Part shown: positions 5,535-56,338 of the stretch, piece by piece
How the letters are laid out: each line of letters begins with the position of its first letter
Numbering within the stretch: position 1 is the first letter of the stretch
Source of the DNA: Candidatus Magasanikiibacteriota bacterium
GTDB taxonomy: Bacteria; Patescibacteriota; Patescibacteriia; Magasanikbacterales; GWA2-37-8
NCBI GenBank assembly: GCA_041665405.1
Contig: JBAYIZ010000001.1
Location: 26,618-90,617, forward strand
Length of the DNA: 64,000 nucleotides
Reading direction: 5' to 3'
Notes under the pieces: generated by a model
What the model was told of the DNA's origin: nothing
The model's database searches: none
Seen by the model: only the letters and a program-made list of their open reading frames with translations
Position numbers and translations under genes: made by a program

Positions 5535-6782
5535 ATGAAAATTAAGCAAATTGTTGGGAGGGAAATTTTGGATTCACGCGGCAATCCAACCGTGGAAGCC
5601 AAGTTAGTTTTGGAGAATGGTATCGTCAGTATTGCGAAAGTACCATCAGGTGCCTCTACTGGCTCGCATGAGGCATTGGAATTGCGTGATGGTGGTAAAC
5701 GTTATGGGGGCAAAGGTGTTTTGAAGGCAGTCAAAAATATCAACACTACTATTGCCAAAAAATTGGTCGGTTTGGAAGTGGAAGATTTGAAAAATTTGGA
5801 CAAAGTAATGATAGAATTGGACGGAACTAAAAATAAAACAAATTTAGGAGCGAATGCAATCCTGGCAGTATCGATGGCCGCCGCGAGAGCAGGAGCGGAA
5901 ACTAAAAAAATTCCACTTTATAAATATTTACGCCAGGTTTATTCTATTGCCGAAAAAGAATATCGTTTGCCGGTACCGATGATGAATATTTTGAATGGTG
6001 GACGTCATGCCGACAATGGTTTGTCTATCCAAGAGTTCATGATTATTCCTCGTCACAAATTGATGAGTGAACGTGTGCGGATGGGATCACAAATTTTTCA
6101 TGCTTTGGCCAATATTTTAAGTCAAAAAGGTTATGTTACTTCAGTAGGTGATGAAGGTGGTTTTGCTCCAGAACTTTTGAACAACGAACGGGCACTTCAG
6201 GTGATAATGGAAGCTATAAAATATACTGGATGGATTCCGGGAAAGAATGTGTTCCTAGGTTTAGACGTGGCCGCTTCAGAGTTTTTTCATAGTAAAAAAT
6301 ATTATTTTGTTAGTAAAAAACAAGGTTGGAGCGCAGATAAAATGATTGACGTGTATAAAGAGTGGGTTAAAAAATATCCAATAATCTCTATTGAAGATGG
6401 TTTGAGTGAGGATGATTGGGACAGTTGGAATAAGTTGACCAAAGAAATGGGTAGTAAAATTACTTTGGTCGGAGATGATTTATTTGTCACCAATACTGAA
6501 CGTTTACAAATGGGTATAGACCAAAAAGTTGGTAATGCTATTTTAATTAAACTTAATCAGATTGGGACAGTGAGTGAAACTATGGCGGCTATAATGCTCG
6601 CCAAGAAAAACGGCTATAAGGTAGCCGTTTCACATCGAAGTGGTGAAACTAGCGATACATTTATTGCTGATTTGGCAGTGGCAGTAAATTCAGAATTTAT
6701 CAAAACTGGCTCGCTATCTCGTTCGGAACGTGTTGAAAAATACAATCGTTTGATGGAAATCGAAGCTGAATTATCGGTTTAA
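5535..6782 (+). CDS. eno: Enolase
   Basis: Enolase N-terminal signature (EILDSRGNPTVEA) and full-length similarity. Confidence 0.95.
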   Translation: MKIKQIVGREILDSRGNPTVEAKLVLENGIVSIAKVPSGASTGSHEALELRDGGKRYGGKGVLKAVKNINTTIAKKLVGLEVEDLKNLDKVMIELDGTKNKTNLGANAILAVSMAAARAGAETKKIPLYKYLRQVYSIAEKEYRLPVPMMNILNGGRHADNGLSIQEFMIIPRHKLMSERVRMGSQIFHALANILSQKGYVTSVGDEGGFAPELLNNERALQVIMEAIKYTGWIPGKNVFLGLDVAASEFFHSKKYYFVSKKQGWSADKMIDVYKEWVKKYPIISIEDGLSEDDWDSWNKLTKEMGSKITLVGDDLFVTNTERLQMGIDQKVGNAILIKLNQIGTVSETMAAIMLAKKNGYKVAVSHRSGETSDTFIADLAVAVNSEFIKTGSLSRSERVEKYNRLMEIEAELSV

Positions 6783-25990: not shown

Positions 25991-26755
25991 ATGTACGTTT
26001 ATCTTTATGACAATTTTTTGCGGCAAAAAAAGTATGATTCCTTAATCAAAGCGGTGGAGGTGCGTTTGACTGATTATGGAATTGCTGGAAAAATTTTGCG
26101 TTTAAACAATTTTATTGATCCAAAACAGATTATTGATGATGAAATAAAGCGTGGTGCCAAAACGATTGTGATAGTGGGAAATGACGCGACTTTCGGATAT
26201 GTGTTGTCACGAGCGGCTACTTGTAATTGTACGTTCGGTTTTTTGCCAGTTGGCGCGGATAATACGATTTCTGAGGTATTAGGAATTCCGGTTGGTGTTG
26301 AGGCGTGTGACGTTTTGTCCAAAAGGCGCAAGGAAAGTTTGGATGTGGGTTGGATGAATAATCGATATTTCGTTTCTCAATTGCATGTGTTGCCAGCAAA
26401 GCTGAAAGTCGTATATGATGAGAGATTTGTAGTGACTGCCAATGAAAAAATGGAAGTGGTAGTTTGCAACTTGCAACCTTATTATTGGAAAAAAGATAAA
26501 AAAGATCAATCAGATCAGGTGGTGCATCCGCAAGACGGCAAGTTGGAGGCGTTTTTAAGACCATTGACAAAGCAGGGGTGGTGGGGATATAAATATGAGG
26601 ACCCAAGTGTATTTCCATTCGAGGAAATGGAGATAGTGTCTGATTCACCATTCACCGTTGAAGCTGACGGAAAAGTTTCCAAAGAGATAAAAGTGAAAAT
26701 CAAATTGGCACACGGGAAGATAGACATGGTGGTCGGTAGGAATAGGCAGTTTTAA
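25991..26755 (+). CDS. Diacylglycerol-kinase catalytic-domain lipid kinase (YegS/BmrU-like)
   Basis: DAGK_cat motifs (IVIVGNDATFGYV, GFLPVGADNT). Confidence 0.65.
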   Translation: MYVYLYDNFLRQKKYDSLIKAVEVRLTDYGIAGKILRLNNFIDPKQIIDDEIKRGAKTIVIVGNDATFGYVLSRAATCNCTFGFLPVGADNTISEVLGIPVGVEACDVLSKRRKESLDVGWMNNRYFVSQLHVLPAKLKVVYDERFVVTANEKMEVVVCNLQPYYWKKDKKDQSDQVVHPQDGKLEAFLRPLTKQGWWGYKYEDPSVFPFEEMEIVSDSPFTVEADGKVSKEIKVKIKLAHGKIDMVVGRNRQF

Positions 26756-35266: not shown

Positions 35267-35295
35267 TTGACAAAATTTACTCAATCCGTTATTAT
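35267..35295 (+). promoter_or_regulatory. Consensus promoter TTGACA - 17 nt - TATTAT upstream of rplJ
   Basis: Exact -35 hexamer and good -10 with 17-nt spacer. Confidence 0.55.
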
Positions 35296-35426
35296 ATCCG
35301 CACCATAGACAGCAGGTGGCGAAAGCCTTAATTACCTGCCGAGGTACAAAAGCTATTTTAGTATAGGTCGATTTGTACTGTATTATCTGTCTGTGGAAAC
35401 ACAGATTTTTTTGTTAAAAAATCACT
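35296..35426 (+). promoter_or_regulatory. rplJ 5' leader with hairpins (candidate L10 autoregulatory leader)
   Basis: Hairpins GCAGGT..ACCTGC and TCTGTG-gaaa-CACAGA between the promoter and rplJ start. Confidence 0.4.
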
Positions 35427-55674: not shown

Positions 55675-56067
55675 ATGCATACTAAAATTAAAGGGGATAT
55701 AGGGGAATTATTAGTAGCGGCAGATCTTTTAGAAAAAGGGTGGATGGTTTCGCTGCCAATCAGCGAAAACACCAGATACGACTTGATAATCGAAAAAAAT
55801 GGAAAAATAAAACGGGTACAAGTAAAAGCGGTTGTACCAAAGAATGGGGCAATGATTATCAATTGTCGGTCGTCAAATAATTGGAATGTTATAAACTACA
55901 CAAAGAAAGATTTTGAAATTTTAGCCGCAGTGGATATAATTTCAAAAAATGTTTATTATATACCAGTAAAATGTATAAATAGAAGATGCATTAATTTACG
56001 ACTAACAGCGTCGAAAAATAGACAAGAGAAAAATATAAATTTAGCAAAGAGTTTTTTGAAAATATAA
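55675..56067 (+). CDS. PD-(D/E)XK-type nuclease-like small protein, wedged between tRNA-Thr and intron-containing tRNA-Tyr
   Basis: GDIGE...YDLII..EKNGKIKRVQVK resembles a G-E / D / E-x-K restriction-endonuclease-like core; true start taken as ATG 55675. Confidence 0.45.
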   Translation: MHTKIKGDIGELLVAADLLEKGWMVSLPISENTRYDLIIEKNGKIKRVQVKAVVPKNGAMIINCRSSNNWNVINYTKKDFEILAAVDIISKNVYYIPVKCINRRCINLRLTASKNRQEKNINLAKSFLKI

Positions 56068-56072
56068 TTATT

Positions 56073-56338
56073 GGGCAGATACCAAAGTGGTTAAATGGGA
56101 CAGACTGTGAACAATTGCAGCTCTTAGGGGAAACCCTAGGATGAACTCTCTGGGATAACGGTGAAGGCTAATGGGGGTGCTAATACCGTGGGAACTCCGA
56201 AATGTTCGGGGAGCGCCGTAGAGACTAGATACCAGAGTACCCTTCGTGGGTAAAGATATAGTCCATGCCGTAAGGAAACTTATGGATAAGTGAAATCTGT
56301 TGGCTCCGCCTTCGAAGGTTCGAATCCTTCTCTGCCCA
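56073..56338 (+). tRNA. tRNA-Tyr (anticodon GUA) interrupted by a group I intron in the anticodon loop
   Basis: Exons reconstitute GGGCAGATACCAAAGTGGTTAAATGGGACAGACTGT|AAATCTGTTGGCTCCGCCTTCGAAGGTTCGAATCCTTCTCTGCCCA, closely matching bacterial tRNA-Tyr including the long variable arm. Confidence 0.8.
56109..56292 (+). ncRNA. Group I intron (~184 nt, subgroup-IC3-like, no ORF)
   Basis: Starts G and ends G; IGS GCAG can pair with the exon end CUGU (G-U at splice site); P2 TAGGG-GAAA-CCCTA; CGTAGAGACTAGA matches the P7/J6-7 core of the Azoarcus tRNA-Ile intron. Confidence 0.7.

Follow-up and report, generated by a model that had tools for sequence, protein, structure and literature searches.

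A 184-nucleotide group I intron at position 35/36 of a Magasanikbacteria tRNA-Tyr(GUA) gene, beside a free-standing homing-endonuclease-like gene

The stretch of DNA analyzed here (the window; 64,000 nucleotides, positions 26,618 to 90,617 of the forward strand of contig JBAYIZ010000001.1, GenBank assembly GCA_041665405.1) comes from a Candidatus Magasanikiibacteriota bacterium; a protein encoded in the neighborhood of the element discussed below is 100% identical to an NCBI protein of 'Candidatus Magasanikbacteria bacterium', in agreement with a host among the Patescibacteria. At 56073-56338 on the plus strand, counting from its first nucleotide (nt), the window carries a tRNA-Tyr(GUA) gene whose anticodon is interrupted, very probably, by a 184-nt group I intron (56109-56292), a shortened member of a lineage that targets the sequence CUGU. 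The split was proposed in a preliminary description of this DNA made from its letters; its coordinates are confirmed by direct sequence read, and its assignment to group I is upheld by a covariance-model match, by homology and by covariation among 21 introns.

A split anticodon and the evidence for a group I intron

Exon 1 (56073-56108, plus strand; GGGCAGAUACCAAAGUGGUUAAAUGGGACAGACUGU) supplies the 5′ strand of the acceptor stem, the D arm, the 5′ strand of the anticodon stem and C32, U33, G34 and U35; exon 2 (56293-56338, plus strand; AAAUCUGUUGGCUCCGCCUUCGAAGGUUCGAAUCCUUCUCUGCCCA) supplies A36, A37 and A38, the 3′ strand of the anticodon stem, a 13-nt variable arm, the T arm, the 3′ strand of the acceptor stem and the discriminator A. 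Read by element, the 5′ half is GGGCAGA-UA-CCA-AAGUGGUUAAA-UGG-G-ACAGA-CUGU and the 3′ half is AAA-UCUGU-UGGCUCCGCCUUC-GAAGG-UUCGAAU-CCUUC-UCUGCCC-A, with CCA not encoded in the gene. The joined exons form an 82-nt RNA that ARAGORN calls tRNA-Tyr(gta), with acceptor and D stems of 7 and 3 bp, an anticodon loop CUGUAAA and the long variable arm of the bacterial class II form, just as the preliminary description had proposed. The junction U35|A36 restores the GUA anticodon and places the insertion at 35/36. The split gene occupies the usual Thr(UGU)-Tyr slot of the tRNA cluster, where relatives keep tRNA-Tyr.

The intron (56109-56292, plus strand) contains no open reading frame (ORF), begins and ends with G (G56109 and G56292), and allows all helices from P1 to P9 to be drawn, the P3-P7 pairings included. 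In P1 (56105-56120), exon CUGU (56105-56108) pairs with the internal guide GCAG (56117-56120) through a U35·G wobble at the 5′ splice site, and the helix is extended by G56109·U56116 and A56110-U56115. The 8-bp P2 hairpin (56122-56141; 56122-56129 with 56134-56141) is capped by the GAAA loop L2 (56130-56133), and P3 joins 56147-56153 to 56232-56238. The P4-P6 domain (56158-56217) comprises P4 (56158-63 with 56184-89), P5 (56166-68 with 56179-81), P6 (56190-91 with 56216-17) and P6a (56195-201 with 56205-211), P5 being closed by a 10-nt loop in place of the P5a hairpin of relatives. The 5′ strand of P7 (56221-56227) consists of G56221, a bulged A56222 and GACUA (56223-27); its 3′ strand, UAGUCC (56259-56264), located by the RF00028 match and the alignment, directly follows J8/7 (AAAGAU), and six pairs are possible. 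P7 is presumed to be the guanosine-binding helix, pseudoknotted with P3. The P8 hairpin (56239-56251; 56239-42 with 56248-51) lies between the 3′ strands of P3 and P7, and the intron's 3′ end (56265-56292) holds P9.0 (56265-66 with 56290-91), P9 (56268-74 with 56279-85), its GAAA loop L9 (56275-78) and the terminal G56292. The alignment has no insert between P7 and P3′ (P7.1/P7.2 are absent). As to the P7-region core singled out earlier, CGTAGAGACTAGA is indeed present at 56217-56229, and its GUAGAGACUAGA may match the Azoarcus intron; a string search of the literature did not find the Azoarcus core sequence.

The group I covariance model of Rfam (RF00028), run on a 501-nt slice with an E-value threshold, matches 56082-56285 over its whole length (model positions 1-253) with 48.8 bits (E = 1.8e-11). 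With a significant match to the model and P3-P7 pairings that can be drawn, two of the refuting conditions named in the preliminary description do not arise. A Magasanikbacteria homologue (L101; 213 nt, P5a intact), 82% identical to the window intron in conserved columns, reaches 70.4 bits, above the gathering score, and a profile of 21 homologous introns has a single match in the 64 kb window (E = 9e-59). Homologues were sought in contigs of one genome per species with the core pattern CCGTAGAGACTAGATACC-N(10-40)-GATATAGTCC, which returned at least 120 loci, nearly all of them, among the matches listed, in Patescibacteria metagenome-assembled genomes (MAGs). Loci were classed by an exon ending in CUGU, a guide GCAG, an intron ending in G and a second exon restoring the anticodon stem; all those classed are split at 35/36, and the host gene is tRNA-Tyr in at least 21 of them (the window included), tRNA-Asn in at least 24 and tRNA-Asp in at least about 37.

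Covariation was assessed on 21 aligned tRNA-Tyr introns, using the group I fold drawn on the window sequence. Standard pairs fill 94.4% of 1112 cells, compared with 34-42% in controls that slide the 3′ partners by 1-3 columns; both-sided (compensatory) changes are found in 27 of 53 pairs; and the covariation score is 0.409, compared with 0.05-0.12 in the slid controls, with none of 500 shuffles reaching any of these measures. Compensatory change supports P2, P3, P6a, P8, P9 and P9.0, and P5 covaries too. All eight pairs of P2 change on both sides (94.6% of its cells are paired), as do four of seven in P3 (e.g., CG:11/UA:10 and UA:10/CG:9), three of four in P8 and six of seven in P9, while P9.0 is represented by CG (11), UA (6), UG (3) and AU (1). 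The four pairs of P1, the U·G splice-site pair among them, the guide GCAG and the terminal G are invariant in 21/21 introns.

The same alignment settles the 3′ boundary. In the 64 kb window, the split gene is missed by default ARAGORN and by the Rfam tRNA model. When introns are allowed, as the preliminary description had advised, ARAGORN does find the gene at 56073-56338 with a 184-nt intron but miscalls it tRNA-Ser(tga), with the boundary shifted by two bases. A two-base boundary error of the same kind has been described for tRNA-Asn and tRNA-Asp (Nakagawa et al., 2026; PMC13011429). The shifted boundary is excluded because G56292 is invariant, whereas several relatives have A or U for the G two bases upstream, which changes in concert with 56266, its partner in P9.0.

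We infer that the window intron is catalytic. On the established group I pathway, from which the following steps are taken, the folded pre-tRNA would pair exon CUGU (C32-U35) with the guide GCAG to form P1, and an external guanosine bound in P7 would attack the phosphate after U35. The terminal G56292 would then occupy the guanosine site, and the freed 3′ OH of U35 would attack the phosphate that follows G56292; U35 and A36 would thereby be ligated and a mature tRNA-Tyr with the anticodon GUA released.

Several points weigh against this reading. The RF00028 score, significant as it is, falls short of the curated gathering score, 50, by 1.2 bits, and a whole-window search at the gathering threshold reports nothing. 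No variation occurs in P1, the P4 core, P6 or P7, which therefore contribute no evidence from covariation; the pairs of P7 were fixed by the retrieval pattern. The minimum free energy fold of the intron alone is unexceptional (z = -1.45), a kind of fold that cannot represent the P3/P7 pseudoknot. Splicing in vitro is known only for Patescibacteria 35/36 introns in tRNA-Asn and in tRNA-Asp, and for none from tRNA-Tyr. The search for a second tRNA-Tyr, made with ARAGORN, covered the 64 kb window, where none is present. Finally, the P5a hairpin of relatives is absent from the window intron, which could weaken its folding.

Compactness and lineage of the intron

Among the matches listed, the nearest DNA relative of the window is a Magasanikbacteria MAG (JAVHOZ010000058.1, locus L120). 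Its exons are 100% identical to those of the window and its 184-nt intron is 94.6% identical; the flanking spacers have diverged. Synteny is kept upstream (TIM, a TPR protein and two tRNA-Thr) and lost right after tRNA-Tyr, where L120 has signal peptidase and HisRS and the window has rpmG and DUF1189. In the alignment of 21 introns, these two have a 10-nt L5, whereas the other 19 carry a P5a region of 15-45 nt, and both also have short P6a and P8 loops. The window intron thus appears, from this alignment, to be a shortened member of its lineage that has lost the P5a extension. The Azoarcus intron has 205 nt, and the window intron is about 20 nt shorter. Because the P5a hairpin is missing and the P6a and P8 loops are short, its 184-nt length ties the published minimum, the range over 333 bacterial tRNA introns being 184-894 nt (PMC13011429), which bears out the earlier expectation that it would be among the most compact.

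Such reduction raises the question of whether the intron still works as a ribozyme. The loss of P5a may have left it too reduced to fold alone, in which case splicing would take place only with a protein cofactor or an RNA chaperone in vivo. The contrast between the 10-nt L5 of the window and L120 and the longer P5a region of the 19 relatives fits this idea, as does the lower RF00028 score of the window intron (48.8 bits, compared with 70.4 bits for L101), but the core helices are all kept, as are the GAAA tetraloops L2 and L9, and the shortened intron is 94.6% conserved between two genomes that diverge further in their protein genes (86% for the endonuclease gene described below), which suggests that the short form is functional; dependence on a cofactor is accordingly judged very improbable. 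Still less credit can be given to the notion of a tRNA pseudogene in decay, split by an inactive intron remnant. It would agree with the failure of standard tRNA finders and with the unencoded CCA, but the exons depart in nothing from the canonical form and are the same in L120, the intron helices are kept by compensatory changes across 21 genomes, and the gene sits in the usual Thr(UGU)-Tyr cluster position with no other tRNA-Tyr in the window; the pseudogene reading is close to refuted. A shortened group I intron within a tRNA-Tyr anticodon is the reading retained here.

The core (P7/J6-7) is identical in tRNA-Asp, tRNA-Asn and tRNA-Tyr introns, which always follow CUGU and always carry the guide GCAG; judged by these shared sequences, the lineage appears to target the CUGU common to the anticodon loops of tRNA-Tyr, tRNA-Asp and tRNA-Asn (anticodons GUA, GUC and GUU). 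A neighbor-joining tree of 183 well-aligned columns, drawn without support values, places the window intron in a clade of nine tRNA-Tyr introns, with other tRNA-Tyr introns found among those of tRNA-Asp (L047, L084) or of tRNA-Asn, and the tRNA-Tyr introns are not monophyletic. The nearest neighbor has the same host tRNA in 62 of 76 introns. The tree gives a hint that the lineage has now and then switched host among tRNAs having the four-base target CUGU in common, and reverse splicing is a concept that would allow such switching (PMC3984707). Within Magasanikbacteria the presence of the intron is patchy, because L101 has it and another genome (L168) has an uninterrupted tRNA-Tyr.

No tRNA-His member of the lineage was found with a classifier that needed CTGT...GCAG, which a tRNA-His with UUGU would escape; two ARAGORN 'His' calls were rejected as really tRNA-Asn and tRNA-Asp, and one further 'His' match was spurious. 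A relaxed splice-site classifier applied to the 33 unresolved loci gave noise. By eye, many of these 33 end in tRNA-Asn-like 3′ halves after longer inserts, possibly endonuclease-bearing introns. A scan of viral contigs with the broad motif GTAGAGACTAGA..GATATAGTC returned 42 phage loci (L001-L042); no tRNA-Tyr was identified among the part of these loci that was classified, the exons read being those of other tRNAs, and the phage loci were left out of the set of homologues. The phage introns include those of tRNA-Leu(UAA) in L002-L004 and of tRNA-Ile(UAU), at 34/35, in L014 and L025, which have the GAGCGCCGTAGAGACTAGATACC core of the window intron.

A homing-endonuclease-like gene in the tRNA cluster

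A free-standing PD-(D/E)XK homing-endonuclease-like gene of 130 amino acids (aa) (55675-56067, plus strand), absent from the preliminary description, starts 13 nt after tRNA-Thr(UGU) and has its stop codon 5 nt before tRNA-Tyr. It is a neighbor and not part of the intron: the ORF is wholly upstream of exon 1 and the intron has none, so the gene is not encoded inside an intron that it might mobilize. The protein matches Pfam PF11645 with 96 bits (E = 2.5e-27; cut-off 26.1), and its residues 3-119 align with a PDB 2OST chain ('Putative endonuclease'; E = 6.8e-8), presumably I-Ssp6803I, the tRNA-fMet intron homing endonuclease of Synechocystis. I-Ssp6803I is a tetramer with a 23-bp pseudo-palindromic target (PMC3384342). 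The window protein keeps all 10 residues that are invariant in 29 relatives, with a conserved YD...VQVK motif; the conserved D36, Q49 and K51 are probably the catalytic residues.

Among at least 120 intron loci listed, the endonuclease gene occurs only at the window and L120, the latter being the one carrier among at least 20 tRNA-Tyr intron loci from other genomes. Weak tblastn matches of protein P0007 at seven tRNA-Tyr intron loci, which cover residues 2-48 of a call that, at 175 aa, exceeds its relatives in length, were set aside as presumed translated tRNA. In L120 the gene, which lies on the minus strand of the locus at about 5883-6275, is interrupted at codon 24, where an in-frame stop replaces W, and the protein called there (P0002) has only 107 aa. 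The two copies differ by 36 synonymous and 13 non-synonymous codons, and because most differences are synonymous despite the in-frame stop, past constraint followed by decay is suggested for the L120 copy.

Loci of the endonuclease itself (L163-L248) were gathered by protein look-ups and one metagenome scan, and 40 distinct close relatives share at least 45% identity. Within 120 nt upstream, tRNA-Thr(UGU) is the neighbor in 29 of 32 close relatives; downstream, 14 of 35 have an intron-less tRNA-Tyr, two a tRNA-Thr(GGU) and one (L178) an intron-bearing tRNA-Tyr. Distant relatives adjoin tRNA-Arg(UCU), Ala, Ile or Thr(GGU). PF11645 ORFs are also found inside group I introns of tRNA-Arg(UCU) inserted at 34/35 (L228, 360-1029; L236, 2290-2990), and because of these a single endonuclease family is both intron-encoded and free-standing beside tRNA genes. 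Among the 10 titles or abstracts listed in a PF11645 literature search, none deals with free-standing copies.

Is the endonuclease tied to the intron? One might suppose that the two form a mobile unit, in which the endonuclease cuts endonuclease-free Thr(UGU)-Tyr alleles and repair from the donor copies its gene and, by co-conversion, the intron beginning 41 nt downstream (hitch-hiking or trans homing). Next to the intron-bearing tRNA, the window has an intact endonuclease gene and L120 a disrupted copy, and in the independent lineage L178 an endonuclease only 55% identical is again next to an intron. I-Ssp6803I, of the same family, is a proven homing enzyme of a tRNA intron; relatives free of the endonuclease have a Thr(UGU)-Tyr spacer of only about 19-24 nt, which makes the gene a discrete insertion; and co-conversion of flanking markers and trans, or collaborative, homing are established in phage systems (PMC3984707). 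Yet the linkage is inconsistent: of the 35 close-clade endonuclease loci with a downstream flank, 14 have an intron-less tRNA-Tyr and a single one an intron, L120 alone has the gene among the 20 tRNA-Tyr intron loci listed from other genomes in the intron scan, and the L178 intron resembles the window intron no more than it does other tRNA-Tyr introns (76-79% identity). Moreover, an enzyme that cuts the tRNA-Tyr insertion site could not coexist with an uninterrupted tRNA-Tyr; because 14 lineages keep the gene beside just such a tRNA, a target at the intron-insertion site is unlikely. On these grounds a mobile unit is improbable, and a strict collaborative (trans) homing pair was rejected as the principal explanation on the same 14/35 against 1/35 linkage.

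The endonuclease gene is most simply seen as a free-standing resident of the tRNA cluster that spreads by intronless homing, and its position next to the intron suggests that two selfish elements have come together at a shared hot spot. There is a small chance that PF11645 genes, as widespread residents of the Thr(UGU)-Tyr spacer, occasionally co-convert an ORF-less tRNA-Tyr intron into intron-free alleles. If so, ORF-less tRNA introns would have a horizontal route at the DNA level, missed by the published census, in which only intron-encoded endonucleases were counted.

Two further features were observed. A promoter-like TTAGCA-16-TATAAT (10/12; 56041-56068, plus strand) lies within the 3′ part of the endonuclease ORF and stops 5 nt short of tRNA-Tyr; the AT-rich stretch holds more such matches than expected (14 compared with 4.5). 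Elsewhere in the window there is an ordinary ribosomal protein L10 leader, unrelated to the intron (RF00557, 75 bits; 35285-35420, plus strand).

Comparison with known systems

A survey of 95 complete Patescibacteria genomes (Nakagawa et al., mSystems 2026; PMC13011429; bioRxiv July 2025) reported a tRNA-Tyr(GUA) 35/36 group I intron in Doudnabacteria GCA_016699995.1 (Tables 1 and S3). The preliminary description had thought a tRNA-Tyr host with this placement unusual; both are already in Table 1 of that survey, at least 20 further tRNA-Tyr examples are added here, and the window intron contributes a member from another class. The advance is modest: a tie for the shortest known bacterial tRNA group I intron, the additional tRNA-Tyr examples, and a previously unreported link between the Thr(UGU)-Tyr tRNA cluster and free-standing PF11645 genes.

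The practical consequence follows from the blindness of default ARAGORN and the Rfam tRNA model and from the tRNA-Ser miscall: tRNA-Tyr will therefore be undercounted in completeness and tRNA-set estimates for Patescibacteria unless 35/36 group I introns are handled. The window intron is also a naturally minimized group I ribozyme (184 nt, P5a apparently lost), a possible compact model if splicing occurs. More broadly, one intron lineage seems to occupy the CUGU shared by tRNA-Tyr, tRNA-Asp and tRNA-Asn, with signs of host switching, and an endonuclease family lives in the same cluster; these two points extend the 2026 picture and do not change it.

The IC3 bacterial tRNA introns, such as those of Azoarcus tRNA-Ile and cyanobacterial tRNA-Leu, resemble the window intron in their small size, anticodon-loop location, U·G splice site, GAAA in L2 and L9 and GUAGAGACUAGA core. 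They are inserted at 33/34, 34/35 or 36/37, whereas the window intron is at 35/36, and the IC3-labeled examples sampled have a longer P9 region (CAGACCACAAAC...GUGGUAAG) where the window intron has a single P9 hairpin. Among the Table S5 sequences consulted, IC3-labeled bacterial tRNA introns carry GGTGTAGAGACTAGACGG and score 39-50 bits against the family profile, compared with 8.9 bits for one labeled IA1 (PMC13011429). A kinship with IC3, which the earlier comparison with Azoarcus would imply, is plausible on the core sequence, but in the published typing none of the Patescibacteria tRNA introns fell in IC, and 25 of 28 introns at 35/36 were assigned to IA (PMC13011429). In Table S5, near-identical tRNA-Arg introns are labeled IC3 and IB3, and best-model subgroup labels seem unstable for this reason.

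Insertions at 35/36 are enriched in Patescibacteria (19/28), and precise GTP-dependent splicing at this position has been demonstrated in vitro for two introns, one from tRNA-Asn and the other from tRNA-Asp, in which a change of the terminal G to C abolishes splicing (PMC13011429). The tRNA-Asp(GUC) and tRNA-Asn(GUU) introns of Patescibacteria share with the window intron the insertion after CUGU, the guide (G)GCAG and the terminal G. The 196-nt tRNA-Asp intron that was tested agrees in helix order, with a P1-P9 layout lacking P7.1/P7.2, but sits in a different host tRNA, is 49% identical to the window intron and scores 26 bits against the family profile; the tested tRNA-Asn intron, likewise in a different host tRNA, is 42% identical, has an extra insert between P7 and P3′ and scores 18.5 bits. 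The Doudnabacteria tRNA-Tyr intron is much closer: it scores 136.6 bits against the 21-intron profile, is 76% identical to the window intron, and has the same host tRNA, insertion after CUGU, guide GCAG and helix order, with long identical core blocks (GGGATAACGGTGAA, AATACCGTGGGAACTC, GAGCGCCGTAGAGACTAGATACC and AAGATATAGTCCA). It differs in length (192 nt against 184 nt), the P5a hairpin having apparently been lost in the window intron, and it belongs to a different Patescibacteria class from Magasanikbacteria. The window copy, in addition, has a homing-endonuclease gene immediately upstream, and PMC13011429 makes no mention of free-standing genes.

That gene, too, has known counterparts. 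I-Ssp6803I belongs to the same Pfam family, PF11645, and shares the YD...VQVK motif but is intron-encoded, whereas the window gene stands free between two tRNA genes. The analogy with SegB of phage T4 is functional only, SegB being a phage gene of a different nuclease family (GIY-YIG). Like the window gene, SegB is a free-standing homing endonuclease wedged between tRNA genes (cited in PMC3984707), and spread of the SegB type would be expected, that is, intronless homing with the conserved tRNA genes serving as homology arms.

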